This document shows positions 30,115 to 50,970 of a stretch of DNA of 64,000 nucleotides, one piece after another. The notes under the pieces are model-generated. The model was not told where the DNA came from and did not search any database. It saw only the letters and a list, made by a program, of their open reading frames with translations. Position numbers and translations under genes: made by a program. The stretch covers positions 916 to 64,915 of the forward strand of contig JAFGRO010000021.1 of assembly GCA_016935095.1 (NCBI GenBank). The letters are read 5' to 3'. Every line of letters begins with the position of its first letter. Position 1 is the first letter of the stretch. Origin of the DNA: Candidatus Woesearchaeota archaeon. Its GTDB lineage: Archaea > Nanobdellota > Nanobdellia > Woesearchaeales > GW2011-AR15.

Positions 30115-32124
30115 ATGGAAGTCTTACTTATTAATTCGCCAAGGCTCTTTTTTAAAAACACCTGTTTTTCTTTTACTGCACCGCCGTTGGGAATAAGCTA
30201 TATAAACGGCTATTTGCATAAAAAAGGGATTGAATCAAGAATAATAGACTTAAATATCCTATTAATGGAAAATAATGAGCTTATGAATCTTTTCCAGGAA
30301 ATTGACCCTAATCTTGATTTTAATGAGTTTTTTTTAAAAAAAGATAAGATAATTAAATCTGCTCTAGATTATTTTTTTTCTAAGATAAGGATTAATTGTC
30401 CAGATAATGACCCAGCTATTATAGGGATAAGCATACTTGAAGCACAGTCATTAAAGATAATGATACCCTTCATTGAAAAACTGAAATACAGATATCCAGA
30501 ATCAAAAATAATTGTAGGAGGCAATTCGGCCCCTTTAATTGAAGATAAATATGTTCTTAATAAAACAATTGACTATATTATATTCAAAGAGGGTGAAAAA
30601 ATATTTTATGAATTAATCAAAGCAATAGAAAACAAAAGAAGTATTTCCGGGATTCCTTCTATAAAATATCTTGACAACAGCTCAATAAAAGAGAACAAAT
30701 ATTGCGGGGATTTTGATATAGCTGGGCAGGCAATAAAATTCAATGAACATGACATTGAAAAATACAGGTTTTTGAACCGGTTCTATGAATCATTCAATGA
30801 TATTTTTGTTACGCCAGTACTGCCATATTCTTTTTCAAAAGGATGCTCATTTAAATGCACTTTTTGCGGAGCTCCTTATGACAATAGAAAGATCCAGCAT
30901 AAAAATACTGAAAAAATTGTACAGGACATTGAATTTCTAAAACAAAAATACAAACAGAATTATTTTTATTTTTTTAACCAGCATCTCACTATTAATAAAT
31001 CATTTATCAGTGAATTGTGCGACAGATTGATTGACTCAAAAACAGATATTCTGTGGTCTGATTCTATAAAGCCTCTTCCTTATTTATCCCAAAAAATTTA
31101 TTATAAATTAAGGGAAGCAGGATGCATCATGCTCAGCCATGGAATTGAAACAGGCTCTGAAAAGATAATGAAACTGATGAATAAAGGCCACTCTGTCAAG
31201 GATAATAAAAAAAACCTTAATTACTCGCATAAAGCAGGAATTTGGAATATGGCAAATTTCATGGTGGGATTCCCCACAGAAACAGAAAAAGAATTTAATG
31301 AAACTCTTGAGTTTATCAGAAAAAATTCAGAGCATATTGACTCTTTATTTGTGAATAAATTCAGGTTAGAAAAAAATTATATCAGATATCATCCGGAAGA
31401 ATTCGGGATAATGTCTCATGGAAATTTAGAGTTGAACAGCATTTCAAATGTAATGTTAGATGAATATGATGAGATTAAGGGTTTATCATATAAAGAGATT
31501 ATGAGATTAAATGATAAACGATATAATATAATCCATAGGTTAATAAAGCCTGAAGACAAATATAAACTTGATCTATTCTCCCACAGGATGATTTTCCCGT
31601 TGTATGATAATTTAATTGAAAAAGAGAAAGTCAGAGAATTCTACAGGGAAAATTATAATTTGATCAGCAGGTATGATAAAAGATATTATTCTGTGTTTAC
31701 TGGTGCTGTATCAAACCAGAAAATAAAAGGAAATTTAAATTACTGCAGTGCTGAAATTTTTAAAGAGACACCTAAAAAAGATATTTTTGAAGAACTCGCT
31801 AAAATTGCTGAACAGGGTTACAAAAGGCTTATCTTTACAGGAGGGGAGCCCCTGATAAGAAAGGATATATTTGAAATATTAAATAAAGCTAAAAAAATTG
31901 GCTTTGAATACATAATTGTAAAGACAAATGCAAGGATGCTCCAGTATAGATCTTTTTGTAAGAAATTATCACAGTATGTAGATGAGATTCTTGTCATCAG
32001 CCCTTCTGATAATGAAGAGGAGTATGATTCGATTTCAGGCATAAAAGGCTCTTTTATGCAGGCCAAACAGGGAATCGAAAACTGGAAAAACCTTGGAAAA
32101 AAAATAAGGCATTATTCTAAGTAA
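30115..32124 (+). CDS. Cobalamin-binding radical SAM protein fused to a C-terminal degenerate (cluster-motif-less) radical SAM-like domain
   Basis: PPLG, SKGCSFKCTFC, GIETGS. The C-terminal domain keeps TGGEPLIRKD and TNARML but has no CxxxCxxC. Confidence 0.88.
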   Translation: MEVLLINSPRLFFKNTCFSFTAPPLGISYINGYLHKKGIESRIIDLNILLMENNELMNLFQEIDPNLDFNEFFLKKDKIIKSALDYFFSKIRINCPDNDPAIIGISILEAQSLKIMIPFIEKLKYRYPESKIIVGGNSAPLIEDKYVLNKTIDYIIFKEGEKIFYELIKAIENKRSISGIPSIKYLDNSSIKENKYCGDFDIAGQAIKFNEHDIEKYRFLNRFYESFNDIFVTPVLPYSFSKGCSFKCTFCGAPYDNRKIQHKNTEKIVQDIEFLKQKYKQNYFYFFNQHLTINKSFISELCDRLIDSKTDILWSDSIKPLPYLSQKIYYKLREAGCIMLSHGIETGSEKIMKLMNKGHSVKDNKKNLNYSHKAGIWNMANFMVGFPTETEKEFNETLEFIRKNSEHIDSLFVNKFRLEKNYIRYHPEEFGIMSHGNLELNSISNVMLDEYDEIKGLSYKEIMRLNDKRYNIIHRLIKPEDKYKLDLFSHRMIFPLYDNLIEKEKVREFYRENYNLISRYDKRYYSVFTGAVSNQKIKGNLNYCSAEIFKETPKKDIFEELAKIAEQGYKRLIFTGGEPLIRKDIFEILNKAKKIGFEYIIVKTNARMLQYRSFCKKLSQYVDEILVISPSDNEEEYDSISGIKGSFMQAKQGIENWKNLGKKIRHYSK

Positions 32125-32167
32125 ATTAAATTTTGAATAATAAGAGTGAAAAATTTTAGATAAACTA

Positions 32168-32175
32168 TTTATAAA
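32168..32175 (+). promoter_or_regulatory. Archaeal TATA box (tttataaa), probable leaderless transcript of 32196 gene
   Basis: TTTATAAA ending 20 nt before the ATG, preceded by A-rich BRE-like sequence. Confidence 0.5.
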
Positions 32176-32195
32176 TCCAGCAATTCTCCTTATTT

Positions 32196-34223
32196 ATGAA
32201 AGTTGCTCTTATTAATGCTCCTAGATTGTTTTTTAAAGATGAGGCTTTTTTATTGACACCGCCGCCGATAGGCCTTGCCAGAATATATGGCTACTTAAAA
32301 AAAAAAAAAATCAATACTTCTTTTTTTGACCTTAACACGATGTTGATGAAGAAAAAAGAGCTGTTTCTTGAATTCAGCAGGATAAGGGCAGATATTGATA
32401 TTGAAGAATTCTGTAAGAAACACATTGAATTGATTGAAAAATCATTAGAATATTTCCTTTCTGAAATAAAAATCAAAAAGTATGATATTGCTGGCATAAG
32501 CATTCTTGAAAATAATTCAATGAAACTGATTGTTCCATTCCTCAGAAAAATAAAAAAGATAAATCCCTGCATTAAGACTGTAATAGGTACTTTATTCATA
32601 GATTCAATAAAAAAAGAATATTTTTCTGAAGGCATAGTTGATTTCATAGTTAACGGAGAAGGTGAAGATATATTATATTCCATTATAAACTCAGTAAAAG
32701 ATAATAAAAATCAAAAAGATAATAAGATTCAATATGAAATTCCTTCAATCATTTATCTTGATGGACAAAAGCTAATTCAAACAAAAAAAAGCAACAGCAA
32801 TATTTTTTTTAAACAGGTAATTGAATATGATAAAAAAAATCTAGATGAATACAGGTTTTTAAATAATGAATATAATATGTTCAATGATTTTTTCAATACG
32901 CCTTTATTAGCATATATTCCTTCAAAAGGATGTGAATTTAAATGCACTTTCTGCAGCACTTCTGATGATAACCGCATGAGTATAAACACTCCTGAAAAAA
33001 TTGTGGATGATCTGTTTCAGCTTGTAAAAAAGTATAGTTACAAATATTTTTATTTTTATGACCATCATATCTCAATATCACGTAAATTTCTAAATGAATT
33101 ATGTGATAATATTATTGACAGGAGATTAGATATTCTATGGAGCGATGCAATAAAACCCCTTGGATTTTTAACACAGGAAATTTATTATAAATTAAGGAAA
33201 GCAGGATGCATCAAATTAAGTTTCGGGATTGAGACCGGCTCTGAAAAGATAATGAGACTTATGAATAAAGGACATTCAGTAAAAGATTGTGAAAAAAACC
33301 TAAGATTTGCGCATAATGCAGGCATCTGGACTGAAGCCTTTTTTATTACAGGATTTCCTAGAGAAGGAAAAAAAGAGTTTAATGAAACTCTTGAATTTAT
33401 CAGGAGAAACATAAAATATATTGACTCTACTCCCTCTGGAAAATTTATGTTAACCCGTAATACTGATATTTTTAACAACCCTGAAAAATACGGAATAAGA
33501 ATCATAAACAAAGAAAAAGATATTCCTTCAATGGTCGGCACATACATAAAGTATGAAGATTTAAAGGGTGTTTCTTTTGAAGAACTGCAAAAGATAAATG
33601 AAACCCGGGCTCAGATATTAAATGCTTTTTTCAATAAATTAAAAAAATCAGATATTAACATGTCTTTTCCCAGAACTTTGCTTTTTCCGTTATATGATTA
33701 TCTGGAATCAAAAGAAAAAGTAAGAATCTTTTTAGAAGGAAATCATGAATTAATTGGAAGAGAAAAACCTGGTTATTTCTCTTTGTTTACAGGAGCCCAG
33801 TCCAACCAGAAAATGAAAGGCAACCTTCATGAATGCAGTATTAAAGAATTCAGAAACATTAAATTAAAAAAAATAATTATAAAACTTGAGGAGATTTATA
33901 ATGAAGGATATAGAAAACTTATTGTTTTTGGAGGAGAACCTTTAATCAGAAAAGACTTATTTGAAATACTCTCAGAAGCAAAAAAGATCGGGTTTGAGTA
34001 TATTATTATAAAGACAAATGCAAGGATGCTGCAGTATAGATCTTTTTGTAAGAAATTATCACAGTATGTAGATGAGATTCTTGTTATCAGCCCTTCTGAT
34101 AATGAAAATGAGTATGATTTGATATCCGGCATAAACGGCTCTTTTTTACAGGCTAAACTGGGAATCGAAAACTGGAAAAAGCTTGGAAAAAAGACAAGGT
34201 ATTATTCTACTGAAAAACAATAG
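32196..34223 (+). CDS. Cobalamin-binding radical SAM protein with C-terminal degenerate radical SAM-like domain (tandem paralog of 30115..32124)
   Basis: PPPIG, SKGCEFKCTFC, GIETGS; same C-terminal domain as its neighbour. Confidence 0.88.
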   Translation: MKVALINAPRLFFKDEAFLLTPPPIGLARIYGYLKKKKINTSFFDLNTMLMKKKELFLEFSRIRADIDIEEFCKKHIELIEKSLEYFLSEIKIKKYDIAGISILENNSMKLIVPFLRKIKKINPCIKTVIGTLFIDSIKKEYFSEGIVDFIVNGEGEDILYSIINSVKDNKNQKDNKIQYEIPSIIYLDGQKLIQTKKSNSNIFFKQVIEYDKKNLDEYRFLNNEYNMFNDFFNTPLLAYIPSKGCEFKCTFCSTSDDNRMSINTPEKIVDDLFQLVKKYSYKYFYFYDHHISISRKFLNELCDNIIDRRLDILWSDAIKPLGFLTQEIYYKLRKAGCIKLSFGIETGSEKIMRLMNKGHSVKDCEKNLRFAHNAGIWTEAFFITGFPREGKKEFNETLEFIRRNIKYIDSTPSGKFMLTRNTDIFNNPEKYGIRIINKEKDIPSMVGTYIKYEDLKGVSFEELQKINETRAQILNAFFNKLKKSDINMSFPRTLLFPLYDYLESKEKVRIFLEGNHELIGREKPGYFSLFTGAQSNQKMKGNLHECSIKEFRNIKLKKIIIKLEEIYNEGYRKLIVFGGEPLIRKDLFEILSEAKKIGFEYIIIKTNARMLQYRSFCKKLSQYVDEILVISPSDNENEYDLISGINGSFLQAKLGIENWKKLGKKTRYYSTEKQ

Positions 34224-34230
34224 CTGAAAT

Positions 34231-36030
34231 TCAGCATATGTATCTTATCAAAGAAAAAGGCCGGTTTTCCAACGGGCTTTCAAAATCAATTGATTTTATG
34301 CATTCTTTAAATATATTGTCCATTTTTTCTATATCCGCCTTAAACAAATTTTCACTATTATAATCTCTTTCTGTGTAATATTTTTCATCATAAAAATAAA
34401 AGCATTTGCCTTTTTTATCATATCTTTCAAGATTTTCATAAAATTCAGGAGGAATACCAAAATAAACTGAGTTTTTCTGCAGACTATAATAATAATCCAG
34501 TACCGGCTGGCCGACAGAGATTTTAATAATTTCACATGATTCATTTATAAGTATATTTTCAGTAAGAATATTAAGCTCATCAACAGTTGGATTCCAAACA
34601 GATAATCTATCTAAAGAAAGCCCAGGAGATGTAAAAAAAGCAATTAAAAAAAATAAAAAGACAGCTGAAAATTTAACAGAATTAATAATTGTATAGGAGT
34701 ATTTATTAAAGATTCTTTCAATCAAAAATAATATCATATAATACACAATAATAATCTCACAGAAGATATGCTGGGCATAGTATTTCCATGATTCACGAAA
34801 TCCTTCCATTGTAAAGAACAATTCAAAAACAATATAGATTAGATTATAAAAAACAAAGATAAAAATAAGGTTATTAACATTAAATTTATTGCTCTTTTTA
34901 CTATTTGTGATTAATCTGAAAATAAGAAATAAAAACAAAATTGCAGAAAATGCCACTCCAAAATAAGTGAACAGTGAAACATACCCTGAAGATAAGCTCA
35001 AGTCTTTATTTGCAATAACATTATATTTAAAGATATAAAAGGATTTGCCTATAAATGAAAAAAGCCTGTTTTCCCCGAGCTCATTATTTCTAAATAAAAG
35101 AAAGTCAAACTCCTGGACTGTAAACAGTTTCACCAGCGCCATTGAAATTAAAATCAAAATAATCATGGTAAGAGCAATTATCTTTCTTCTTTTTCCTGTG
35201 TGTTTTAAGAAAACACTGAAATATGCAAGATATGCCATTGCAAATAAAAATGCAAGCTCATACCTATAATAAGCAGCCAGGATAAGCGAGATATTTGATA
35301 ATATAAACAAAGACAAGTCTTTTTCTTTAATAAATAATAATAAGAACAACATAGAGGAATATGCAAAAAACATAGCGCCTATTGAATATTCAATTGAATG
35401 CATATTAAACTGTATCCATTTAGATGAGATAAAGGTCATATATACAACCAGGCTTATCCAGGTCTGCTTAAAAATAATTTTTGAAAGAAAGAAGATTACC
35501 AACAGAAGAAAAACAGAAAGGATTTTATTAAAAAATAATACTGTGAAAGGTGTTACTCTGAATTGAAAAAATTCCTGAAGTACAGAAAATATTATAGTTG
35601 AGTAAGTCCTGGGCATAGACTGAAATGCTCTAAATATATCTCCTATAAAAACATTTCCGAGAATATGAGTTAGGTTAACAAATCTGCCGAAAAATGAACC
35701 ATGCATTAAGTAAAATACAAAAAAGACCGAAAAAAGTAAAATAAAAACAAAATAAAAGATATTGTGTTTATCAAACCATGCAGGTTCTTTTTTTGTAATC
35801 TTTTTTATCATATATCTAAAAAAAAGAAAGAAAAAAAGAAGGAACATGCATAAAAAGATAATGCTGTTCAGGATTATATAAAGAGGAGAAAAGGATATCA
35901 TGTTATTAATGTCTTTAAATATTATTAAAAAAAGATAAGCCGAAAAATAAACCAAAGGATAAATAAATTTTTGTATCAGGATTATAAATCTGTTTGCCAC
36001 ACCGCTTAAAAAAAATCTTAATGATTTCAT
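34231..36030 (-). CDS. Polytopic membrane protein (GT-C-like), paralog of 26842..28611
   Basis: Many TMs, YYRYE motif; ATGA overlap with the upstream rSAM gene. Confidence 0.55.
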   Translation of the reverse strand: MKSLRFFLSGVANRFIILIQKFIYPLVYFSAYLFLIIFKDINNMISFSPLYIILNSIIFLCMFLLFFFLFFRYMIKKITKKEPAWFDKHNIFYFVFILLFSVFFVFYLMHGSFFGRFVNLTHILGNVFIGDIFRAFQSMPRTYSTIIFSVLQEFFQFRVTPFTVLFFNKILSVFLLLVIFFLSKIIFKQTWISLVVYMTFISSKWIQFNMHSIEYSIGAMFFAYSSMLFLLLFIKEKDLSLFILSNISLILAAYYRYELAFLFAMAYLAYFSVFLKHTGKRRKIIALTMIILILISMALVKLFTVQEFDFLLFRNNELGENRLFSFIGKSFYIFKYNVIANKDLSLSSGYVSLFTYFGVAFSAILFLFLIFRLITNSKKSNKFNVNNLIFIFVFYNLIYIVFELFFTMEGFRESWKYYAQHIFCEIIIVYYMILFLIERIFNKYSYTIINSVKFSAVFLFFLIAFFTSPGLSLDRLSVWNPTVDELNILTENILINESCEIIKISVGQPVLDYYYSLQKNSVYFGIPPEFYENLERYDKKGKCFYFYDEKYYTERDYNSENLFKADIEKMDNIFKECIKSIDFESPLENRPFSLIRYIC

Positions 36031-38456
36031 TTGTTATTCAAAATATGTTGAGGAATATATTTTTTTCCAACAAAAAACAATAAGTAAGGATATAGTTTTT
36101 TCTCATCATTTGCTTTAAAAATAACCTTTTCTCCTGTTACCTCAATTATATCAAGAAGTTCCAAGGCTTTTATCGCATAGGGGAAATCATCAGCAATATC
36201 CTTGCCGTACATGTTTTTATAGTCTTTCCTTATTACAGAAAAATGCTCATAGGCAGAATGGGTTATAAATTTCACTTTAGCATAATGCGGGGCAAATAAA
36301 TGTATAGAATAAAAGAAATCTTTTTTATCAGGAGGAAAATTTTTACAGAACATGCTGTCTTTATTGTTTTTGTGCACGATTATATATCTAAATAAATTAT
36401 TAATACATCCTTCCCCATAAAATCCAAGGGCAAAATTTGAATACGGCTCTGTCCTGTAATTTGTGTAAACATATTTAATTTTTCTCGGAGTCTGATTTTT
36501 AAGACAAAAATCCATCGGATGCACATAACTTAATTTAGAAGGGTCATCAAAATGAGTAAAATTATGTTTGTCTGATATTACAGGGATTTCTTTAACAACA
36601 GCATCAAATAAAGGATAATAAAAATCAAGGAAATTCTTGAGCTTTCCATCATATCTCTTTTTAATATAATTATCATTGGTCTTGATAGGGTAAAGCGATA
36701 TTATGCTTGGCTTCATCTTAAGGATTTCCTCAAAAGTGTAAAGAAAATCTTTTGGAGAATCGCCTTTTAATCCAAGCAGGAGATCAACATTAAGATAGCC
36801 TATTTTTGTTTTTTTGAAATCAGAGATTGTCTTTTTTACTTTTTCAATTGTCTGATAGGGCCTGTTGTTTTTTTTAAGGACACTAGGGGATAGAGACTGC
36901 ACGCCAATAGACAGTTTATTAAAACCAAAATTATCAATAATCTTCAGTTTTTCAAATGTGGTTGTATTCGGATTGAATTCTATGCCTCTTTCTGCATATT
37001 CATCAAATTCAAAATACCTGTAAATTGAGCTGATGTATTTTTTTAACTGGTCCTCCGACATTAAGCTTGGAGTGCCTCCTCCAAGAGACAATGCCTTGAA
37101 TTTCAGTCCTTTAAACAGAGGCGAAAATAATTTCATGTCCTTGATTAAATAATCAATATAATCATCAATCTGTTTCCTGTCCTGCAAAGTTGTAGATGGA
37201 TAAACACAATATGCGCATGTTGACTGGCAGAAGGGAAAATGAATATAAAAAGCAAGAAGATCAGGCTCAAGTCCTTTTTTCACCTTATCTGTAAATATCT
37301 TCCACCCCGTATATACAAATGACTTGTTTTTTAAGCCGATATTATTCATTAAAAAAAAGCTGTAAGTATCATATATATTATTTTTATTCGGCTTATTCTT
37401 AATTGCCGTTTTAAATAATTCCAAATCTTTAATAACCTTATCATGAAATGAACCTGATTTCAATATATTATTATTTCCATGATTATTTTCAGGAAGTCTG
37501 ACTCCGGTATTATTCATTCTGGTCAGGATATCCTCTACTTCAATAAACACAGGATAAACTTCAGTTACTCCATGTACAGCAGCATAATTCGGATTTATAC
37601 CTGGGCATATATCTCTCAAAGTGCAGTGCCTGCATGCCTCTGCCTGAATATATTGCTTTTTTTCTTCAATCATTAAATTGTTTATATCCTCTGTGTCTTC
37701 TTTTGCAAAGTATGTTAAACGTTTTTCCTTTAAGCCTGAAAGCCTTACCTCTGTAGAAAATTCCTCAATTCCTGTCATATAGCACAATGGAACTCTCTCA
37801 AGCCTGAAAGTAAGATTATTCTTTTTAATATAATCAATTGTTTCCCTGATATAACGCTCTGTCTCGGCTAATCCTGGCACAATCCACTTGTTTTTTTTAG
37901 CGCGGCCGGCAGGATCTACAAAATTAAAACTAAAATGGGTTATATTAGGGAAATGTTTTCTTATAAACATAACATGGTTTTTCAGTTTTTTATAATTTAA
38001 TTCATTAATGACAATCGTCATAAAAACATTAACATCATAATCAAGGACATTTTCTAAGCCCTGTAAAATTTTCTCATAATTATCTTTAGTAGAGAGTCTG
38101 TTGCAGACTTCTTTTTCATATGAATGAAATGAAAGGTTAAATTTTACATTGCCGTATGTTTTTATTTTTTTAACAAATTCCTGAGTCAAGTTAACACAGT
38201 TTGACTGGATTGTAATTTCTATGAAATCCTGTTTTTTAGCGAAATCAATTATCTTAAAAAGATCAGGATGAATAGTTGGTTCCCCTCCTGTAATAAAGAG
38301 GTCATTTGTTCCAAGTTTCCTCAATTTAATTATTCTTCTTTTTATTTCATCTAAACTAGGGTTATCCGGAGGCCCTTCCGGCACTGAGCAGAATATGCAC
38401 TCCTGGTTGCATTCAGTGCTTATCTGCAGTCTTCCCGGTATGTGTCTGTATGTCAT
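36027..38456 (-). CDS. Double radical SAM fusion: HxsC-like domain plus HemN-like (class C) domain
   Basis: CNQECIFC/TGGEPT...VPLC...CRHCTLRDICPG, then YIHFPFCQSTCAYC, LGGGTPS, SIGVQS and NVDLLLG. Confidence 0.85.
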   Translation of the reverse strand: MTYRHIPGRLQISTECNQECIFCSVPEGPPDNPSLDEIKRRIIKLRKLGTNDLFITGGEPTIHPDLFKIIDFAKKQDFIEITIQSNCVNLTQEFVKKIKTYGNVKFNLSFHSYEKEVCNRLSTKDNYEKILQGLENVLDYDVNVFMTIVINELNYKKLKNHVMFIRKHFPNITHFSFNFVDPAGRAKKNKWIVPGLAETERYIRETIDYIKKNNLTFRLERVPLCYMTGIEEFSTEVRLSGLKEKRLTYFAKEDTEDINNLMIEEKKQYIQAEACRHCTLRDICPGINPNYAAVHGVTEVYPVFIEVEDILTRMNNTGVRLPENNHGNNNILKSGSFHDKVIKDLELFKTAIKNKPNKNNIYDTYSFFLMNNIGLKNKSFVYTGWKIFTDKVKKGLEPDLLAFYIHFPFCQSTCAYCVYPSTTLQDRKQIDDYIDYLIKDMKLFSPLFKGLKFKALSLGGGTPSLMSEDQLKKYISSIYRYFEFDEYAERGIEFNPNTTTFEKLKIIDNFGFNKLSIGVQSLSPSVLKKNNRPYQTIEKVKKTISDFKKTKIGYLNVDLLLGLKGDSPKDFLYTFEEILKMKPSIISLYPIKTNDNYIKKRYDGKLKNFLDFYYPLFDAVVKEIPVISDKHNFTHFDDPSKLSYVHPMDFCLKNQTPRKIKYVYTNYRTEPYSNFALGFYGEGCINNLFRYIIVHKNNKDSMFCKNFPPDKKDFFYSIHLFAPHYAKVKFITHSAYEHFSVIRKDYKNMYGKDIADDFPYAIKALELLDIIEVTGEKVIFKANDEKKLYPYLLFFVGKKYIPQHILNNK

Positions 38457-39316
38457 TTTAGTGGTTTTAAATTACCTATCCCGAATCTTTTTATATCATT
38501 TAAAAAAAAACCCTCACACTTATAAGATAAAGAGCAGCTCCTGCACATTGGAACCTTGACCTTGGGCTTTTCATGCTTAAAAGCATTTTTAGGCATATTA
38601 ATAAATTCATAATCTCTTCCAAAAACACAATAAGGGATATCATTAAATGAAATATTAGGGATATTATTTTTTATTTTAAACTCAATTAATTCTCTCAGGT
38701 ATTTTCCTAATTCTGCATAAGGCACACAGAAGGAGTAGCTTTTTACATCAGGATATAAGTGAGCCACATCAATGCCGAAATTTACCGGATTAAAGCTCAT
38801 TGCTAATTTTAAAATCCCTATCAAATCCTCCTTGTTTTGCTGTACCACAACTGTAAGCAATCTTAACTGGGATTTTCCTGCCTCATTTATTAATTTAATC
38901 CCTCTTATTGCCTCATCAAAACTTCCTATAGCTTGAGTTACAGAATCATGTATCTCTGCATTTGATCCATATACCGGAATCCTGAAAGAAGTAACTCCTG
39001 CATCAATTAATTCAATTATTAAGCCTGAATTTTGACTTATTCTTCCGTGGGTGCATAATAATATTTGCTTAAATCCAATTTTTTTAATATATTTTATCAT
39101 CGGCACTAATTTGTCATATTCAAGAGCATCATTTCCTGAAATATTTATATTTTCACAGCCCTGTTTTTTGTATTTAATAAGCTTTTTTGCAATAATAATT
39201 TCCTGATTTCTGATTCCTTCCGCTGTCAGCGGCCGTGTATATGTGTTCAGGCAAAAAACACACCTGTTTTTACAGCCGGGACTGATAATAATTACACCTG
39301 TTTTAGGTTCAGCCAT
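38453..39316 (-). CDS. HxsC-like radical SAM protein
   Basis: CKNRCVFC, IHDSVT..GSF, IPYC...CRSCSLSYKCEG; GGE motif replaced by SGNDA. Confidence 0.75.
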   Translation of the reverse strand: MAEPKTGVIIISPGCKNRCVFCLNTYTRPLTAEGIRNQEIIIAKKLIKYKKQGCENINISGNDALEYDKLVPMIKYIKKIGFKQILLCTHGRISQNSGLIIELIDAGVTSFRIPVYGSNAEIHDSVTQAIGSFDEAIRGIKLINEAGKSQLRLLTVVVQQNKEDLIGILKLAMSFNPVNFGIDVAHLYPDVKSYSFCVPYAELGKYLRELIEFKIKNNIPNISFNDIPYCVFGRDYEFINMPKNAFKHEKPKVKVPMCRSCSLSYKCEGFFLNDIKRFGIGNLKPLK

Positions 39317-41118: not shown

Positions 41119-41120
41119 TT

Positions 41121-42041: not shown

Positions 42042-42120
42042 GAGCTTATAGGAATAGATGAATTCTATTAAAGATTTTGGTAATAGGGTACTAAATCACA
42101 ATCTTCCAAAAATATGGTTA

Positions 42121-42162: not shown

Positions 42163-42267
42163 TTAATGAATCCAATTGACGATGTTCTCAAGTTTAATAC
42201 TAATAGGTGCCAGATAGAATTAAAAGGAAAATTGAAAATTGGTGATTTAAATAAATATTAATTTCTA

Positions 42268-43746: not shown

Positions 43747-43899
43747 TGTTTAATAAAAACTGCAATTTGTATAAAAGGTTTTTTATATGGCATGTTGTTT
43801 TTTAATGTAGCTTTAAACACACTTAAAAGAGAATATATCTTTAAATATTAACTCTCATTTAATATAAACTGGGGGAATCTTGACATTTTAAATAAAATG

Positions 43900-44544
43900 A
43901 CCTCCTCTTGTGACTAAAGTCACAAGTATCCTTTAAGGGGCTCAAGCAACAGCGTGATGCTTTGCTTGGTTTAAAATGTATAAAACAATATCATTCAGTT
44001 GGTTGTAGCCAACTGTTACTGCTGTTCCACCTCTGCTCCATAGATGTGTCCTTATGGATATCTTAAACGACCTTTTGGATGGTTTTTAAAGAATGAATAA
44101 GCAGAACAACCTTTAAGAAGTTGAAATGCTTTTTCATCAGTCATTCCTTTAGGAAAAGTAACTAAGGTATGAATGTGATCAGGCATAACTGTTAAAACAT
44201 GAATTTTAATGTTATGTCGTTTGGCTGCTTTGCGAATGCAAGCTTCGCAAAGTTTTTCATATTTGAAATTGGCAAACATATTATAACGATATTTTGTCTG
44301 CCATGTCAAATGCCAAAAATTTATCCCAACTTTGTGGTTGTAATGTTCAAGTTCAATATTCACAAACTCCATTTTCGTTGCCTCCCGCAACGATTTTTTG
44401 GAGCTAACGCTAAAAAAATGTTAAAAAAAGTGCGCACGCCATTTTCGCTGCGTACTTTTTATTATTGAAAATGCTAAAAAAAAATTTAACGGAGATAAGC
44501 AAGGCAATTCCCCTACAGACTAAAGTCTGTATGAGTATCCTTGC
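43900..44544 (-). mobile_element. Defective IS200/IS605-family element (tnpA only, no tnpB)
   Basis: Related terminal hairpins cttgtgac-TAAA-gtcacaag (43907-43926) and tacagac-TAAA-gtctgta (44514-44531), both overlapping or followed by agtatcctt, bracket tnpA. Exact ends uncertain. Confidence 0.8.
43942..44390 (-). pseudogene. tnpA: IS200/IS605 Y1 (HUH) transposase, disrupted
   Basis: HLTWQTKYR, MPDHIH and LKGCSA, then TAA at 44052-44054. The C-terminus continues in another frame: HLWSRGGTAVTVGYNQLNDIVLYILNQAKHHAVA*, which contains the catalytic YxxxQ. Confidence 0.9.
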
Positions 44545-44552
44545 CTAAGAAA

Positions 44553-47500
44553 ATGAAATATGTCTTTTTTGTTGAAGGTAATAATTGCTTAGGCCATATA
44601 ACCAGGTGTTTAGTTCTTGCTGATTCAATAAAAAAAGCAGAGCCTGATTCAGAAATAGTTTTTCTTCTCAACTCAGAATTTACTTTGCCAATTGAGGAAC
44701 AAAAATTCAGGTTTATTAAATTAAAATTTGATAATCCTGATATTACAAGCAAAGGGGGGAATTTACCTGAAAAATTTTCAAAATTTATCCTGCCGGCAAT
44801 TATAGAAGAAAAACCTGATGTCCTTATTTTTGATACTTTTTTTTCTATAGATATTGTCAGGAATAAGCAATTGACAAATATAAAAAAGGTTTTGATTTTA
44901 AGGAAATATGAAGACAAGGAAATGAAAGTTTTTTTTAATTGTAATTTTTACAGAGACTTTGATTTAGTATTAGCGCCGCATGAAAGAAGAGAATTTGAAA
45001 ATCTTGAAAAAGAATATTCTGTTAAACTAAATACCCTTGATTTTATCGGGCCCCTTGTAAAAGACACTGCTTTTGACAACTCATATGATGATAAGAATAA
45101 CAAAGGATTTAAAATATTAGCTTTGTGCGGCGGCGGAGGGTTTGATGATGCAGAGAAATTTGTGAATTCCTGTATGGATATATATTATTTAACAAACAAG
45201 AAAATTGAAAATCTGAAATTTGAAATAATACCCGGGCCATTTAATAAGAGATTTGAAAATTTGAAAAATAAAAAAGAAACTAATCTTAAAATAAGCAGAT
45301 ATAAAACCAATGTCCTTAATTTAATGAATCAGGCTGACTTAATAATAAGCCAGGCAGGTTATAACACATCAAATGAAATTATTATTGCAAAAACTCCTGC
45401 AATAATCATGCCTCTTATAATTGACTATGATGATCAGCTTGAAAGAGCACTGAATCTGGAAAAATCAGGAATAGCTAAAGTTGTAAAAGACTATAATGCA
45501 AATGCTGCTGCTGAAATTTGTATAGAGCTTGCATTGGATAGAACTAAACTTGAAATTATGGAAGAAAATTTTAAAAAAATTAAATTTCATAGTGGAAATA
45601 AACAAGCTGCAGAGAAAATTATTAATTTAACTAAAATTAAAAAATATAAGTTAAGAATAAGTAATAAATGCAATAATAATTGCATTTTCTGCAGATACTT
45701 AAACATTAAGGCTAATCATGAAAAAAGCTGTGATGAAATTAAAAAAGAACTGGAAGAATTAAAAGAAAAAAATATCACTGAGATTATATTCCCCTGCAAT
45801 TCCGAGATTAGGAAAGATTTTTTTGAATTGTTGGAATACACTAAGAGGTTAGGATTCAGAATAATTCTGGAATCCAATGGCAGGATGTTTTTATATAGAG
45901 ATTTTTATGAAAAAGTGGCTGACTATGTTAATAAATTTGAAATATTTCTAAATTCAGGTAGATCAGAAACCAATGATAAAATTACGAATACAAAAGACAC
46001 TTTTAATCAGACAATCCAGGGGATAAAGAATATTGAGGGGAATATTCAGGTCAATACAGTCATCACAAGATATAATTATATGCATCTAAAAAATATTGCC
46101 TCGTTGGTAAAAAATTTAGGAGCTCAGGATATTAGGCTGATATTTCCTGTTTTGAAGAAGGAAAATGATCATATTCCAGAAGTTTTTGACTGCTATCAGA
46201 ATATTGATGAAGCCATTGAGTATGCAAAAAGCATTGGACTGAACATCATAACTGGTGAACTGTTTTACAATCCTTTTATCCCTGAGGATCTGAATCTGGA
46301 CTATGAAACCGCAGAGGTGATGTATGAATTTAAAATACCGCAAAATTCAGCAATTGTATTCAATAGGAACAAAATTGAAAGGACAAAGACGCTGATTTGG
46401 GAACTAACAGACACATGCAATTATGGTTGTTCTTATTGTACTTTAAATTTAAAAAGAAAGGAAAAAATAAGAATTAATGATTTTAAAGATGTAATAGAAG
46501 GATTAAAAAAACTTCAGGGCTCATGGAATATTGTGCTTTCCGGAGGAGAGCCATTGATTGTTGAAAATATTTCAGAGATAATAAATGATATAATAAAGAA
46601 AACAAAGCACACAATATCCATTGTGACAAATCTTTCACTGGGTGCAGACAAAACAATGAAAATTTTGGATATTCCCAATGACAGAATAGGTGAAATAACT
46701 GCCTCTTTACATTTGGAATACTGCAGCTATGATAATTTCCTGAAAAAAGCAAAAAAAATTAATAAGTTTCTCAGAAAAAAAGGCAAACAAATACATGTGG
46801 AATCTGTCGCGACAAAAGGAAACCTTGTAAAATTAAAAATGATTGGAAAAAAATTCATGAATAATGGAATTCATTTTCAACTTGAGCCTTTAAAAAAGAG
46901 TTATAATAACAAAGAGCATTACTTAAATTACGAAAGAAGTATTATTAAGGAATTCGGAAGAACCTATGGTTTAGATTCTGTAGATTTTTCTAACAAAAGG
47001 TGTTACGCAGGCATGAATTATTTTGTAATAGATAGCAAAGGAAATGCTTACCAATGCCACTCTGCAATGAAAGACGGTTATGGTTCTAACGGTTATCTGG
47101 GTAATTTTCACGATAGTACGTTTAATCTATCAGAATCACCCACAAGATGCATTTACAACTGTTGTGCATGTATTGTTCCTTCTGAGGCAAATATGATAGA
47201 AAATCCTTTTGACAGCAAAGGAGACAAAAAAGAGATAAGCATAATAATTCCAACTTATAACAGAAAAGATGTATTAGAGGTTAGTTTAACTTCTTTATTT
47301 TATCTAAATTATCCTAAAAATAAATATGAAATCATTATTGTTGATGATGGGAGCGATGATAATACTGTTGAGATGATAAAAAAACTTAAACCAAGCTGTA
47401 ATCTAAATTATATATATTGGCCAAGAAAGAAGCCTTATAGTTTCGGAAAAGCTGGCAATAGAGCAGGACCTGCAAGAAATATTGGAGCCAAATATGCTTC

Positions 47501-48047
47501 AGGAGAAATACTTCTTTTCATAGATTCAGATATAATTGCTGATCCAGATATTTTACAAAATTTAATCAAAGGATTCAATACAAATATAGTCTTTCTGGGT
47601 GTAAGGAAAGAACTAAAAAAATATCCTTTTACTAAAGACAAGATAAAAAGATTATTAAAAGAAAATAAATTTAGAGTTAGTGAAGATAAAGTTGAGTATA
47701 CACGCGTAAGTAAGCTTCTTAAAAAATTCAATTTCAATATAATGAATCATGAATTTCCATGGTTTCTCTTGATCTCCTGTATAGTGTTCATGGATAAAAA
47801 ATTATTTAATATGTATGGTGGATTTAGTAAGGATTTTGTATTCTGGGGATTTGAAGATCAGGAGTTTGCATACAGGCTCTCTAAAAACAAGGTTAAATTC
47901 AGTGTTAAAAAAAATGCTATTGGATATCATCAGCCACATGAAAAAGAATTTATCAACAAGGCAATATTTCTCAGAAATCAGGACATTCAAAAAAATATTT
48001 TTTATAAAAAACATCTAGATAAGGATATATATGAATTATATGAGTAG
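44553..48047 (+). CDS. Four-domain fusion: GT-B (GT28-like) glycosyltransferase, HxsC-like rSAM, rSAM with Cys-rich tail, GT2
   Basis: LGHITR...ADLIISQAGYNT; CNNNCIFC; CNYGCSYC/SGGEP...CYAG...C; IIPTYNR, DDGS, FIDSD and WGFED. ATG 44553 preferred because TTG 44541 lies in the IS end. Confidence 0.85.
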   Translation: MKYVFFVEGNNCLGHITRCLVLADSIKKAEPDSEIVFLLNSEFTLPIEEQKFRFIKLKFDNPDITSKGGNLPEKFSKFILPAIIEEKPDVLIFDTFFSIDIVRNKQLTNIKKVLILRKYEDKEMKVFFNCNFYRDFDLVLAPHERREFENLEKEYSVKLNTLDFIGPLVKDTAFDNSYDDKNNKGFKILALCGGGGFDDAEKFVNSCMDIYYLTNKKIENLKFEIIPGPFNKRFENLKNKKETNLKISRYKTNVLNLMNQADLIISQAGYNTSNEIIIAKTPAIIMPLIIDYDDQLERALNLEKSGIAKVVKDYNANAAAEICIELALDRTKLEIMEENFKKIKFHSGNKQAAEKIINLTKIKKYKLRISNKCNNNCIFCRYLNIKANHEKSCDEIKKELEELKEKNITEIIFPCNSEIRKDFFELLEYTKRLGFRIILESNGRMFLYRDFYEKVADYVNKFEIFLNSGRSETNDKITNTKDTFNQTIQGIKNIEGNIQVNTVITRYNYMHLKNIASLVKNLGAQDIRLIFPVLKKENDHIPEVFDCYQNIDEAIEYAKSIGLNIITGELFYNPFIPEDLNLDYETAEVMYEFKIPQNSAIVFNRNKIERTKTLIWELTDTCNYGCSYCTLNLKRKEKIRINDFKDVIEGLKKLQGSWNIVLSGGEPLIVENISEIINDIIKKTKHTISIVTNLSLGADKTMKILDIPNDRIGEITASLHLEYCSYDNFLKKAKKINKFLRKKGKQIHVESVATKGNLVKLKMIGKKFMNNGIHFQLEPLKKSYNNKEHYLNYERSIIKEFGRTYGLDSVDFSNKRCYAGMNYFVIDSKGNAYQCHSAMKDGYGSNGYLGNFHDSTFNLSESPTRCIYNCCACIVPSEANMIENPFDSKGDKKEISIIIPTYNRKDVLEVSLTSLFYLNYPKNKYEIIIVDDGSDDNTVEMIKKLKPSCNLNYIYWPRKKPYSFGKAGNRAGPARNIGAKYASGEILLFIDSDIIADPDILQNLIKGFNTNIVFLGVRKELKKYPFTKDKIKRLLKENKFRVSEDKVEYTRVSKLLKKFNFNIMNHEFPWFLLISCIVFMDKKLFNMYGGFSKDFVFWGFEDQEFAYRLSKNKVKFSVKKNAIGYHQPHEKEFINKAIFLRNQDIQKNIFYKKHLDKDIYELYE

Positions 48048-48270
48048 TTGATATTGTATGATAAACGCCGTAATAATAATTAAGTGCTATTAATATATGA
48101 TTAGGAAAAAAGAGGTTAATATGCAAGATTAAAAAATGAATTTCTAATCTGTTATAAAAAATGAAATAATCAGAAATAGAAAAAATTGAAAAAAATTTTT
48201 GAGTCTAATAAGAATAACTTATCCAATTATATCTATTAGTAAACAAAAATTTTGTGCAATAACAGAAAGA

Positions 48271-50970
48271 TCATGATAGGAATATACCTGGTTTTGCCAA
48301 AGGATCCATAGCATCGTACCTTCCATTGACAAGTTTTGCCGCAAACCTGCATCCTCCAAGACAACCATTTAAGTATTTGCACTCCTTGCATCTGTCCGGA
48401 AAGACCTTCAATTTTCTTATGTCTGCAGATAAACCGCAGGTCCAAGCTTTTTCTAATGGATCATTCAATATTCTTCCTATCTCTTCATTAATAGAATAAC
48501 AGGGTTTGATATTGCCGGAAGGATCAATAACAAGCTTATCAAATATTCCGCATATAGTTGCGCCTTTTGAAAAAAGTTTTACCTTCTCAGGTTCATATGC
48601 ACAAAAAGGGATTCCGTCAACAAATATTTCATCATACCTTTTAGTCAATAAAAGAAGCTTTTCAATCAATATCCTAACATCATCATTGTCAATAGGCATC
48701 TTATTATCAGCTGTCGGTACAGGCCTTGCCAAGAACCATTCAACCTCCATTTCACCTATCAGCCTGAAATATTTTTCCAGCTGATAAATATTGTCCTTTA
48801 TCAAGACAGTGTTTAGCCTAAAAGGAATATTGTTTTTATTAAGAGAAGTAATTAGCTTTTTTTTGAAAGAGACTTCATCCTGGTTTAGAGAATGAAACGG
48901 CAGAAGCATATAATCAACAATGCCCCTCAGTGCGGAAAAATCATTGATAAGTGTGCCATTAGTGTTAACCAAAGTATATAGTGATTTAGATTTGGCATAT
49001 TTCAATATTTCATATAAATCTTTCCTAAGAAATGGCTCACCTCCTGTGAATCTAATGTTCCTGACTCCTGAACTTGCGATTTTATCAATAATATCAAATA
49101 TCTTTTTTTTCGGTAAATCTGGCAGGTTTCTTGAAAAACTATTCTTATTATAACAGAAATTGCATTTAAGATTGCATCTGGAAGTTATTTCAAACTTGAT
49201 TTCGTATGGTTTGTCAATTATGGAGATGTTTTTGTTTTTATCTATCTTTACCAATTCTTTATATATTCCAGGATGAGGATGAACCACCTTGACCTCAATT
49301 TTTTCAACATCTGGCAATGAATAAATAGTCTCAAGAAGAGTCTCAGCATTTATAATGGTTAAAGGCAATATTATAGACACCTCCTTTCCTAGAGAAACAA
49401 TATTTTTTAAGCCAGTTATGGATTGAGATAATGTATTTTCTGTATCTGTCATAAAATCATTAATTTTATTATTCACTGCCGTAAAAAGAACAAAATAAAA
49501 ATTATCTACAAAATCAGCTGTCTTTTCACAAAATTGTCTATAACAAAACATTCGTCCATTTGTATACAAACTAATATTGAATCCCTGCCCTTTAGCAAAA
49601 GCCAGAATATCAACGAAGTCTTTTCTGATATCTGCATTGCAGGGAAATATAATTTCTGAAATACCCTTTTTCTTAAGATCTACAATTTCCTTTCTTATAT
49701 CCTCATAAGATTTGTCAAATAGTTCTTTGTCACCAAAGTCCGTGCAAAAAGTGCAATTATTATTGCAGATACTTCCACATTTAATCAAAGCAGGCTCAGT
49801 ATAGGTATCTTGAAGAGAATTTTCATTTATTCCCTGTTCTTCAGATAAAGTATTTTCTTTTAAGTGTATTTGCTGTATTGCTCCGATGGAGCAGACTTCT
49901 AGACAGCACAAACATTGTATGCATTTTTTTTTATTAATAATATATTTTCCGTGAGACTTTTTAATAGCATCTGCAGGGCAGGATTTAATACACGCACCAC
50001 ATAATTTACATTTTTCAGTAATCCATAATTCAAATGATTCTGTCGTTTTATTCAGCATTTTTTTATAAGATGAATGCTTCTTAAATGAATCTATTGCTTG
50101 CAATCTCTGACCATAAATTTTTATTTTTCTAAAGTCATTAGTACCAAACCCCCGAAGTGCTGCATATCTTGATGTTAATATTTTGGAAGGTGTGTGTCCT
50201 GTTAATTTTGATGCGACTGTATCAATGGCCACAGCATCTTCTGATGTAATAATATAGCCTATCTTAACTGGTAAACCTGTTGTAGGACCTCCCTCGCCTT
50301 CCATTGCAACAACTGCATCCATAATATTAAGCTTTATCTTAGGCCGGATAAAAGAAAAAACATCAACGATTGCCTGATTGAAGTCTGTTATATCCTTGAT
50401 TAGACTGTCCAAGCATTTCCTTCCTTCAGGAGATAAAAAACCAATACAGTTTTTTATCGCACCTGTCAAATATGTTATTGAATGGGACTTGAGTTTTGGA
50501 AGATTTATTATTACATCCGCATCAAAATATGCTTCTGCAAAACCTGTTTTATTCAGTACCACACTATCTTTAATATATTTTTCCACAAATCCTTCATACT
50601 GAAAATCCCTGAAAGAGGAATTAGTATCCTGGATAATTTTTTTAATTCCTGTCTTTTCAATGGCCTCTTTGGGGCTTCCTGAAAGAGTTGATGCTGTCTG
50701 TTCGCCAACATAAACATAAGGCGTGATTTCTTTTACCAGTTCTATGACTGCTCTAATTAAAAGTGGATGAGTAACTGCAGCTTTTTCAGGAGTTCTGCAA
50801 GTACATATATTCGGTTTTATAAGTACTTTATCTTTTTGTTTTACATATTTATTCAATCCTCCAAGCAAATCTAAGGATTTTTGGATAGCTTTTTTTATAT
50901 TCTTATATCCATCACATTTCACTAATGCTAAATCTGACATCATGATATTGTTAATACATGTTTTATCCAT
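48271..50970 (-). CDS. Fusion: DUF362-like domain, 2x[4Fe-4S] ferredoxin, HxsC-like rSAM, rSAM/SPASM
   Basis: VLIKPN...THP, INLPKLKSH..TGAIKN, D.VAID; CKLCGACIKSCP and CIQCLCCLEVC; CNNNCTFC; CNLKCNFC/TGGEP with CKECKYLNGCLGGC. Confidence 0.85.
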   Translation of the reverse strand: MDKTCINNIMMSDLALVKCDGYKNIKKAIQKSLDLLGGLNKYVKQKDKVLIKPNICTCRTPEKAAVTHPLLIRAVIELVKEITPYVYVGEQTASTLSGSPKEAIEKTGIKKIIQDTNSSFRDFQYEGFVEKYIKDSVVLNKTGFAEAYFDADVIINLPKLKSHSITYLTGAIKNCIGFLSPEGRKCLDSLIKDITDFNQAIVDVFSFIRPKIKLNIMDAVVAMEGEGGPTTGLPVKIGYIITSEDAVAIDTVASKLTGHTPSKILTSRYAALRGFGTNDFRKIKIYGQRLQAIDSFKKHSSYKKMLNKTTESFELWITEKCKLCGACIKSCPADAIKKSHGKYIINKKKCIQCLCCLEVCSIGAIQQIHLKENTLSEEQGINENSLQDTYTEPALIKCGSICNNNCTFCTDFGDKELFDKSYEDIRKEIVDLKKKGISEIIFPCNADIRKDFVDILAFAKGQGFNISLYTNGRMFCYRQFCEKTADFVDNFYFVLFTAVNNKINDFMTDTENTLSQSITGLKNIVSLGKEVSIILPLTIINAETLLETIYSLPDVEKIEVKVVHPHPGIYKELVKIDKNKNISIIDKPYEIKFEITSRCNLKCNFCYNKNSFSRNLPDLPKKKIFDIIDKIASSGVRNIRFTGGEPFLRKDLYEILKYAKSKSLYTLVNTNGTLINDFSALRGIVDYMLLPFHSLNQDEVSFKKKLITSLNKNNIPFRLNTVLIKDNIYQLEKYFRLIGEMEVEWFLARPVPTADNKMPIDNDDVRILIEKLLLLTKRYDEIFVDGIPFCAYEPEKVKLFSKGATICGIFDKLVIDPSGNIKPCYSINEEIGRILNDPLEKAWTCGLSADIRKLKVFPDRCKECKYLNGCLGGCRFAAKLVNGRYDAMDPLAKPGIFLS

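Follow-up and report, generated by a model that had tools for sequence, protein, structure and literature searches.

Conserved reduced forms of an HxsC-like radical SAM domain, fused to other enzymes in a putative archaeal HXS locus

According to the report by Li et al. (Nat Commun 2026; PMC13128918), HXS is a bacterial antiphage system, shown in E. coli, that blocks phage DNA entry. By the same account, HxsB and HxsC are required for maturation of HxsA, E. coli HxsC pulls down HxsD, and a survey of bacteria alone finds exactly four genes in >99.8% of systems and 99.7% of systems in Pseudomonadota; the word "archaea" is absent from its text. A 2022 JBC paper does no more than mention HxsB and HxsC (PMC9062424). 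What chemistry HxsB and HxsC perform has yet to be worked out, and a full-text literature search, with subscription journals outside its scope, returned no paper on archaeal HXS systems or on the reduced domains reported here. We analyzed a 64,000-nucleotide stretch of the genome of a Candidatus Woesearchaeota archaeon (GenBank assembly GCA_016935095.1, contig JAFGRO010000021.1, positions 916 to 64,915; called the window below, with all coordinates counted from its first letter), which carries an HXS-like gene set together with nine HxsC-like radical S-adenosylmethionine (SAM) domains, five of them fused to other enzymes. We hold, with about as much confidence as doubt, that this locus is an expanded archaeal variant of HXS, and that the four reduced copies of the HxsC-like domain are built-in accessory domains, non-catalytic or not independently catalytic, that aim the enzyme to which they are fused.

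The core of the locus, and the counterparts of its HxsD homologue in related loci, are as follows.

53330..53863, minus strand: HxsD homologue with an acidic tail and a C-terminal GIA.PWEEKYGK motif that is invariant in the alignment (TIGR03976, 49.6 bits; cut-off 50)
53086..53508, minus strand: HxsD-like small protein (NF038315 HxsD_rel, 41 bits, equal to the cut-off of 41)
51681..53099, minus strand: HxsB, a radical SAM/SPASM maturase (TIGR03978, 429 bits; cut-off 370)
51205..51597, minus strand: HxsA4-type precursor (NF038313, 66.1 bits; cut-off 55)
HxsD homologues with GIA.PWEEKYGK: window 53330-53863 (minus strand); L044:171-821, L045:16717-17157, L046:18888-19481, L048:1759-2163 and L060:2174-2638

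HxsB above its cut-off, an H-x-S repeat precursor and an HxsD homologue are thus all found together, HxsD being marginal at 49.6 bits against 50. The precursor has a conserved N-terminal region, a single hydrophobic segment and a C-terminal run of 18 consecutive H-x-S triplets, and is the sole open reading frame (ORF) with such repeats in the whole genome. The true start of the HxsD-like gene is probably downstream of the listed TTG; its product has counterparts of 77–80 amino acids (aa) in L045 and L046. Archaeal HxsD homologues share an acidic linker followed by the invariant GIA.PWEEKYGK, which is duplicated in L044 and L046 and, in the alignment, looks like a short linear docking motif.

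On the minus strand the gene order is HxsD, the HxsD-like gene, HxsB, the HxsA4-type precursor and a DUF362–ferredoxin–radical SAM–radical SAM fusion (48271-50970). Further downstream come a PMT_2-type membrane glycosyltransferase, the four standalone HxsC-like genes C4 to C1, overlapping or abutting (42041 down to 38453), and, 3′ of C1, an HxsC-like/HemN-like fusion (36027-38456) and an 11-segment membrane protein (34231-36030). The plus strand encodes a GT28–radical SAM–radical SAM–GT2 glycosyltransferase (GT) fusion (44541-48047) and two radical SAM genes with a cobalamin (B12)-binding domain and an extra C-terminal domain (30115-32124 and 32196-34223; B12b and B12c). In total, 16 radical SAM-derived domains lie within 28.6-53.1 kb: the nine HxsC-like domains, a second radical SAM domain in each of the GT and DUF362 fusions (GT_b and DUF_b), three B12-radical SAM cores, the HemN-like domain and HxsB. 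The locus is surrounded by archaeal families (A24 peptidase C-terminal domain, Agl23-like and AglJ-like proteins), and the closest relatives of its proteins are source-labelled Woesearchaeota, Nanoarchaeota or Aenigmarchaeota. The host genome (G000, with the locus on contig C41) is 1.77 Mb at ~30% G+C, and belongs to an order of >130 families whose genomes are mostly 0.6–2.7 Mb. Together these features suggest a small-genome archaeon of the DPANN group.

An earlier note, made from the letters of the window alone, had proposed that one HxsC-like domain is reused nine times here, and all nine copies were found where it placed them. A profile of 293 positions built from C1–C4 (38453-42041) matched the HemN fusion at residues 10-303 (143 bits, independent E-value 9e-45), the GT fusion at 366-615 (111 bits), the DUF362 fusion at 394-571 (88 bits), B12b at 540-665 (84 bits) and B12c at 550-668 (67 bits), with independent E-values for the five fused domains of 9e-45 to 1e-21. 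When all 2035 ORFs of ≥100 aa in the genome are ranked, the nine domains take the first nine places; next come the second radical SAM domain of the DUF362 fusion (61 bits) and unrelated radical SAM proteins (≤54 bits). Five of the nine copies, C1–C4 and the N-terminal domain of the HemN fusion (HemN_N), extend over the full domain:

41121..42041, minus strand: C4, complete standalone HxsC-like radical SAM protein (HxsC4, NF038332, 152.3 bits; cut-off 500)
40228..41118, minus strand: C3, complete standalone HxsC-like radical SAM protein with G-A-E for GGE (TIGR03977, 119.8 bits); the copy nearest bacterial HxsC
39309..40196, minus strand: C2, complete standalone HxsC-like radical SAM protein (TIGR03977, 110.2 bits)
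38453..39316, minus strand: C1, standalone HxsC-like radical SAM protein with G-N-D for GGE and THGRI for TNARM (TIGR03977, 66.5 bits)
37542..38456, minus strand: HemN_N, complete HxsC-like domain (cluster motif, GGE and C-terminal 4-Cys motif) fused to a HemN-like radical SAM domain
36027..37541, minus strand: HemN/HemW-like radical SAM domain and C-terminal region of the same fusion (STM4012, HemN and HemW models match residues 392-600)

The remaining four copies are reduced, and each shares its polypeptide with a complete radical SAM domain (a B12-radical SAM core, DUF_b or GT_b):

44541..48047, plus strand: whole GT fusion, comprising GT28-C (residues 198-344), GT_a, GT_b and GT2 (893-1150), by Pfam
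45627..46397, plus strand: GT_a, HxsC-like domain, residues 363-619; cluster motif kept, P-C-N at the GGE site, no 4-Cys motif
46374..47180, plus strand: GT_b, second, divergent radical SAM domain with CNYGCSYC at residue 626; outside the HxsC-like clade, on a long branch
49900..50970, minus strand: DUF362 and two [4Fe-4S] ferredoxin domains, the N-terminus of the fusion (PF04015, 157 bits; Fer4, residues 316-365)
49228..49806, minus strand: DUF_a, short HxsC-like domain, residues 389-581; cluster motif kept, P-C-N, no 4-Cys motif
48301..49215, minus strand: DUF_b, complete radical SAM/SPASM domain of another subfamily, residues 586-890 (best with the profile of its own group, 113.7 bits)
30115..31674, plus strand: catalytic part of B12b, with B12-binding domain, radical SAM core and helical bundle (PF02310, 40.6 bits, cut-off 32.1; PF04055 match)
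31675..32121, plus strand: B12b_C, cluster-less half-barrel HxsC-like domain, residues 521-669 (by profile and alignment)
32196..33803, plus strand: catalytic part of B12c (PF02310, 28.0 bits, under the cut-off)
33804..34220, plus strand: B12c_C, second cluster-less half-barrel, residues 537-675 (by profile)

The CxxxCxxC cluster motif is present in seven of the nine copies (C1–C4, HemN_N, GT_a and DUF_a) and absent in both B12 tails, which read S-N-Q-K-[IM]-K-G-N at its site and retain GGEPLIRKD. The GGE site is P-C-N in GT_a and DUF_a, which read F-P-C-N-[SA]-[ED]-I-R-K-D where other copies have G-G-E, and G-N-D in C1. A C-terminal motif of four cysteines (P-x-C ... C-x-x-C-x5-C) is complete in C1–C4 and HemN_N (5/9) and in all four bacterial HxsC proteins compared, and is absent from GT_a, DUF_a and both B12 tails; we treat it as a hallmark of the HxsC family from our reading of the alignment, not from a published definition. 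DUF_a ends at profile position 187 of 293 and the B12 tails at 148. The earlier statement that four of the five fused copies lack the cluster or the GGE motif, the HemN-fused copy being intact, agrees with these data. In its account of the domain layout, the nine copies stood; it had overlooked the second radical SAM domains GT_b (612-880) and DUF_b (586-890), and we add the truncation of DUF_a and of the B12 tails. Its word "degenerate", however, is misleading, because the motif changes are conserved subfamily signatures under selection.

How closely these domains are related to HxsC itself was assessed by family models, competing profiles and a tree. No protein of the whole genome exceeds the cut-off of the HxsC equivalog model TIGR03977 (267.9 bits); C4 scores 84.6, the HemN fusion 109.1 and the GT fusion 72.2 bits. 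The best NCBIfam family is HxsC or HxsC4 for C1–C4 and HxsC for HemN_N, at 66–152 bits against cut-offs of 268 and 500, so that by the NCBI rule they are not members of HxsC or HxsC4. A tblastn search with C3 against plasmids returned 485 records, 317 of them from Klebsiella, at 22–25% identity across ~90% of the query; of the 15 listed, 11 carry the annotation hxsC. Four canonical bacterial HxsC proteins match the C1–C4 profile from position 5-11 to 277-283, whereas SPASM radical SAM proteins match the core alone. When window rows and B12-fusion rows were kept out of an archaeal HxsC-like profile, all nine domains scored best against it (91–177 bits), exceeding a SPASM profile by 31–97 bits.

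In a tree of 101 N-terminal half-domains (144 columns; quick IQ-TREE search; branch support by Shimodaira–Hasegawa-like approximate likelihood ratio test, SH-aLRT), 69 rows form one clade with support 88. It holds the nine window domains and the four bacterial HxsC (support 99), and its other members are 28 domains of related loci, 13 of tandem proteins and 15 tails of B12 fusions; outside it fall HxsB, GT_b, DUF_b, the radical SAM protein at 55822, twelve SPASM proteins and three other radical SAM proteins of the genome. The tree thus gives moderate support to monophyly with HxsC, which the earlier note had made a test of its idea. HxsC-like genes are, moreover, encoded together with HxsA, HxsB and HxsD in this locus and likewise in L045, L048, L049 and L060.

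The cluster-less tail of the B12 fusions provides the clearest case of a reduced form that is conserved. Both B12b and B12c have a B12-binding domain followed by a radical SAM core, with CxxxCxxC at residues 244 and 246, respectively. They are 71% identical over the tail, compared with 54% over the radical SAM core and 39% over the B12 domain. In an alignment of 18 sequences cut into four regions, 13 of the 17 comparisons with B12b show the highest conservation in the tail (exceptions P0004, P0080, P0157 and P0170), and 13 of its 149 columns are invariant. The G-G-E-P and T-N-A-R motifs of the cluster-less tail are invariant, and the positions of G-S-F..Q vary little or not at all. Five B12 fusions of 651–681 aa, with 56–64% identity over the tail, came from a word-based search and belong to other archaeal metagenome-assembled genomes (MAGs). 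A tail profile search of 1.84 billion representatives gave 6722 matches at E≤1e-3 and 24 at E≤1e-30, and ~20 clusters, counted by eye, are B12 fusions of ~630–680 aa with the tail or fragments of such fusions. Scans of genome and metagenome contigs with the B12-fusion alignment found only distant tail-less B12-radical SAM genes (25 and 10 loci, respectively). The conservation of these forms in homologous fusions, which the earlier note had made a test of its idea, is therefore seen both in these tails and in the P-C-N proteins described below.

Three database B12 fusions (P0152, P0157 and P0170) have a tail that keeps CxxxCxxC. The cluster-less tails form a clade of 14 rows (SH-aLRT 98), in all 14 of which the three cluster cysteines are replaced, and because the cluster-bearing P0157 and P0170 stand at its base, the tree points to a single loss of the cluster within a pre-existing lineage of B12 enzymes with a half-domain. 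An AlphaFold2 model of B12b (669 residues) is one compact body with a mean predicted local distance difference test (pLDDT) score of 90.3 and a predicted template modelling (pTM) score of 0.90. Ten-residue blocks of the tail from residue 551 average pLDDT 93–98, and residues 541-550 average 68; the modelled tail has five strands alternating with helices and ends after strand 5. Since a pTM of 0.90 over 669 residues places the tail confidently, we read it as an integral domain rather than a loosely tethered one. By Foldseek, the model matches solved structures of TsrM, OxsB, MgmA, CysS and TokK with E 4e-20 to 5e-14; these have the same order of B12 domain then radical SAM core, and we know of no description of a radical SAM-derived half-barrel as a fourth domain in any of them. 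A predicted complex of the B12b tail with HxsD residues 18-177 scored 0.01 and 0.06 against a mark of 0.32, in a run made without controls that speaks neither for nor against an interaction. A half radical SAM barrel that has no cluster and is better conserved than the core to which it is fused is a clear candidate for a pseudo-enzyme domain.

The second reduced form is defined by P-C-N. Its signature, [ILV]-[FL]-P-C-N...R.DF...GF...[ST]-N-G-R, occurs in seven database proteins (P0095, P0102, P0105, P0122, P0156, P0189 and P0193), and in six of the seven a second radical SAM domain (G-G-E, T-N-x-T-L) follows directly after the P-C-N domain, the seventh, P0122, giving a weak 18-bit match. The three cluster cysteines are invariant across this subfamily. 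GT_a, DUF_a and the first domain of P0095 form a clade (SH-aLRT 97), DUF_b groups with the second domain of P0095 (support 86), and the DUF_a–DUF_b cassette aligns as a whole with six database proteins, of which P0105 is 53% identical. An AlphaFold2 model of the cassette from a shallow alignment has pLDDT 77.5 and pTM 0.76. Recent private decay of DUF_a, which we also considered, was rejected: the P-C-N cassette is conserved in other proteins. The reduced forms are conserved subfamilies and not products of decay.

C4 is, judged by its orthologues, the conserved core paralogue of the system: they score 326–470 bits in nine related loci, and 1366 database relatives fall at E≤1e-20. In the 120 of these 1366 rows that were listed, labelled relatives are mostly called "radical SAM protein" and the name HxsC is never used. 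Three close C4 relatives (P0226, P0235 and P0279; 61–70% identity) are fused to class I methyltransferase domains. The G-N-D/T-H-G-R variant of C1 also occurs in P0158 and P0203. The complete copies C1–C4 and HemN_N, which have both the cluster motif and the 4-Cys motif, are most likely active maturases acting on HxsA.

We searched 301 genomes of the order with the B12b tail (E≤1e-12) and scored HxsB either by its cut-off or at E≤1e-40. The tail query matched in 48 of the 301 genomes, mostly standalone HxsC-like paralogues, and HxsB was found above the cut-off in 70 and at E≤1e-40 in 83; with one unpublished genome (G225) left out, these tallies become 47/300, 69/300 and 82/300. HxsB (E≤1e-40) is present in 42 of the 48 genomes with an HxsC-like match (41/47 without G225) and in 41 of the 253 others, an association that is overstated since related genomes are not independent. 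No HxsB was detected at E≤1e-40 in the other six of the 48 (G154, G166, G195, G248, G275 and G282), nor in any of the four sampled genomes of the host's own family, and because of the latter we regard the HXS locus as patchy. In this order of small-genome archaea the system is common and much enlarged, a locus holding 3 to 11 HxsC-like domains.

Among 20 loci fetched on account of their HxsC-like matches, 11 have at least four HxsC-like domains, with up to 11 in L044. An HxsD homologue occurs in seven of the 20, an H-x-S repeat ORF in six, HxsB within the fetched stretch in four, a B12-radical SAM gene in five, a GT related to the GT fusion in six, a HemN-like gene in five and DUF362 in one. 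HxsC-like arrays lie directly beside HxsD, HxsB and HxsA in L045, L048, L049 and L060, and B12-radical SAM genes lie inside such arrays in L044, L049, L050 and L052. Fusions recur as well: HxsC-like with HxsB-like domains in L061 (682 aa), L045 and L048 (the second domains of the latter two fall in the HxsB clade with support 95), HxsC-like with HxsC-like in L046 and L047, HxsC-like with HemN-like in either order in L047, L048, L049 and L060, and DUF362 with a complete HxsC-like domain in L044. In bacteria HxsB and HxsC work together (PMC13128918), and the fusions in related loci suggest that an HxsC-type domain is habitually paired with a second radical SAM domain and that in some pairs one partner alone is fully equipped for catalysis. 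Natural fusions of this kind hint at which proteins cooperate and offer single-chain constructs for biochemistry. The link that the earlier note drew from the B12 and GT genes to the Hxs core gains some support, as B12-radical SAM, GT, HemN-like and DUF362 genes recur beside HxsC-like arrays elsewhere. In G166, a 1326-aa GT2 fusion (L054:6880-10860) carries, besides a second radical SAM domain, an HxsC-like domain that has lost the cluster but is otherwise long (profile positions 32-230) and retains GGE. P0002, a B12 tail fusion, and P0214, a C4 orthologue, come from a Thorarchaeota-labelled MAG, each with a longest listed contig of 9338 bases, and may be neighbours.

These observations can be assembled into a model in which HxsA would be matured by HxsB with the complete HxsC-like paralogues, and HxsD would probably, by analogy with E. 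coli, form a complex with an HxsC-type protein. Fusion to an HxsC-type domain would have recruited B12 methylase-like, glycosyl-transfer, HemN-like and DUF362/ferredoxin functions; in cases where the enzyme so fused brought its own radical SAM chemistry, the HxsC-type domain would have been cut down to the part still under selection. The reduced forms would keep the surface of the HxsC family and so direct the enzyme to the same substrate complex (HxsA, perhaps via HxsD), the retained part mediating association with that complex or with a partner domain. The data show homology, motif states, conservation, pairing in cis and recurrence in other genomes; that catalysis has been lost, that the domains target an enzyme and which partner they bind is inferred. 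A docking role for the reduced domains is plausible as a hypothesis.

Several observations weigh against this model. Against a four-sequence profile of the N-terminal half of bacterial HxsC, the nine domains score 12–57 bits, below the SPASM profile, in a comparison that favours SPASM since the SPASM set was chosen for likeness to the B12b tail; because of this result, it is the tree, the C-terminal motif and the genes nearby that connect the domains to HxsC proper, and the clade support of 88 on 144 columns is moderate, not decisive. The rigid placement of the tail in the model agrees with an accessory or substrate-binding domain built into the enzyme no less well than with a docking module on a tether. 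Tail fusions are rare: they occur in 3 of the 301 genomes of the order and, among 401 genomes of the phylum, in G000 only, and G000 with its 40 nearest relatives holds none beyond its own two copies. No other Hxs locus was seen to contain such a fusion; G281 has the fusion and HxsB on separate contigs, and in G282 (86% complete), which has the fusion, no HxsB was found. The whole DUF362 fusion is nearly without close relatives, and a word search with DUF_a among proteins of 494–1574 aa returned only itself and one protein at 32% identity. Finally, in active radical SAM enzymes the positions of G-G-E-P and T-N-A-R bind SAM, which makes a small-molecule site in the tail conceivable, and many active radical SAM enzymes have no canonical GGE, so that P-C-N copies may still be catalytic.

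The last two points lead to the strongest alternative, a retained small-molecule site, which we consider unlikely: the reduced copies would still bind ligands or catalyse, with P-C-N half-sites completed by the neighbouring domain and the B12 tail binding SAM, S-adenosylhomocysteine or a cofactor, for example to feed cobalamin methylation. The invariant cluster cysteines of the P-C-N subfamily, the (near-)invariant G-G-E-P, T-N-A-R and G-S-F..Q of the cluster-less tail and the intact CxxxCxxC of P0157, P0170 and P0152 in the same B12-fusion clade would all be expected if so, and the pTM of 0.90 suggests that the tail is part of one compact enzyme. The tail, however, has neither strand 6 nor anything after it, a part that also contributes to the SAM pocket in radical SAM structures, and every one of its 14 cluster-less rows has lost all three cluster cysteines.

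We find it doubtful that the B12-radical SAM and GT genes are unrelated to the Hxs peptide and belong instead to a surface-glycan or lipid island, with the HxsC-like domain a general radical SAM module and its proximity coincidental. Eight B12-radical SAM genes lie in 14-34 kb and only two carry the tail, and the window also encodes a DegT-type aminotransferase, an AglJ-like GT, a carbamoyltransferase and three polytopic GT-C-like membrane proteins. Genomes of the host's own family are rich in B12-radical SAM genes, yet none of the four sampled has HxsB, and the six HxsC-like genomes without HxsB include G166 with the L054 GT fusion and its cluster-less domain. Set against this are the enrichment of HxsB in genomes with HxsC-like matches (42/48 vs 41/253, inflated by kinship), the arrays of L045, L048, L049 and L060 that adjoin HxsD, HxsB and HxsA, and the B12-radical SAM genes within the arrays of L044, L049, L050 and L052. 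That the reduced copies are leftovers of tandem fusion, kept solely to stabilise a neighbour's fold with neither recognition nor chemistry, is improbable: tandem fusions of 2–4 HxsC-like domains, many with truncated pieces, are very common in the nearest database relatives, and C-terminal-half-only fragments exist in L047, L059, P0076 and P0120, but the tail outdoes the catalytic core in conservation in 13/17 comparisons, with invariant surface-loop motifs, the P-C-N signature is fixed across distant proteins, and pure packing would seldom hold so many invariant polar residues.

With accessory domains as our preferred reading, a bolder extension can be offered, with considerable reservation. 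The cluster-less half-barrel and the P-C-N form may represent a new class of pseudo-radical SAM adaptor derived from HxsC, which would plug tailoring enzymes (B12 methylases, glycosyltransferases, DUF362/ferredoxin redox modules and HemN-like enzymes) into an HxsD/HxsA scaffold, possibly with GIA.PWEEKYGK of HxsD as a tether shared by many HxsC-like domains, and so allow small-genome archaea the combinatorial decoration of a membrane-anchored H-x-S protein that might act as a variable antiviral or surface barrier.

Other genes of the window surround this system. Eight genes of B12-radical SAM architecture lie within 20 kb (14070-34223), starting at 14070, 15529, 17063, 21507, 24809, 28622, 30115 and 32196; at 21507 the radical SAM domain alone passed Pfam, and only the last two (30115 and 32196) have the HxsC-like tail. 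Relatives of the same family have reading frames of 965–2105 aa with several B12-radical SAM units in tandem (G008:C2:152345-157978, G014:C1:824474-830007 and G016:C53:80462-86125). Three polytopic membrane proteins with 9–13 hydrophobic segments are encoded on the minus strand at 26842-28611, 34231-36030 and 42268-43746, one of them PMT_2-like and two without a family (one with a weak glycosyltransferase hint). PMT-type enzymes glycosylate Ser/Thr, and that one might act on the Ser-rich HxsA is only a thought. At 1522-13928, on the minus strand, are a NERD-domain protein, a T2SSF/T2SSE pair (type IV pilus- or archaellum-like), five small ORFs without a family and a 1418-aa ORF with no Pfam match. 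At 55154-58572 an AglJ-like GT2 overlaps a radical SAM/SPASM gene (55822-56859), followed by a NodU/CmcH-type carbamoyltransferase; this would mean more tailoring capacity adjoining the Hxs core.

Compared with bacterial HXS, the locus has the same four families (HxsB, an H-x-S repeat protein, an HxsD homologue and HxsC-type radical SAM proteins) in different proportions. Bacterial HXS, as described by Li et al., has five repeats and four genes, whereas we count 18 H-x-S triplets, nine HxsC-like domains and two HxsD-type genes. HxsA of this locus has no Pfam match, so no peptidoglycan-binding domain is seen in it. The four bacterial HxsC have ~90–115 residues before the cluster motif that are missing from the archaeal HxsC here, and the archaeal HxsD adds an acidic tail with a conserved motif to what in Klebsiella is a gene of 273 nucleotides. 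Of the NCBIfam families described as rare, HxsA4 (NF038313) has its cut-off passed by HxsA, and HxsC4 (NF038332) is the best family of C4 at 152 against 500 bits, a comparison made by name and cut-off.

Two described types of non-catalytic or derived module come closest to the reduced domains. The earlier note had likened them to the recognition elements of ribosomally synthesized and post-translationally modified peptides (RiPPs), and the likeness holds for function only. The PqqD-like RiPP recognition element has the role proposed here, that of a non-catalytic module bringing an enzyme to a peptide, but it is a winged helix, whereas ours is a truncated radical SAM barrel of another fold and origin; homology is not borne out, as no PqqD-type or RiPP recognition element family is among the Pfam matches of the 15 proteins of the region. 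The TIGR04347 "pseudo-SAM/SPASM" proteins, compared by name only, are also derived from radical SAM enzymes and, by that name, are no longer true ones. They are, however, full-length standalone proteins with SPASM, whereas the derived form of this archaeon, a half-barrel, makes up the C-terminus of a B12-radical SAM enzyme.

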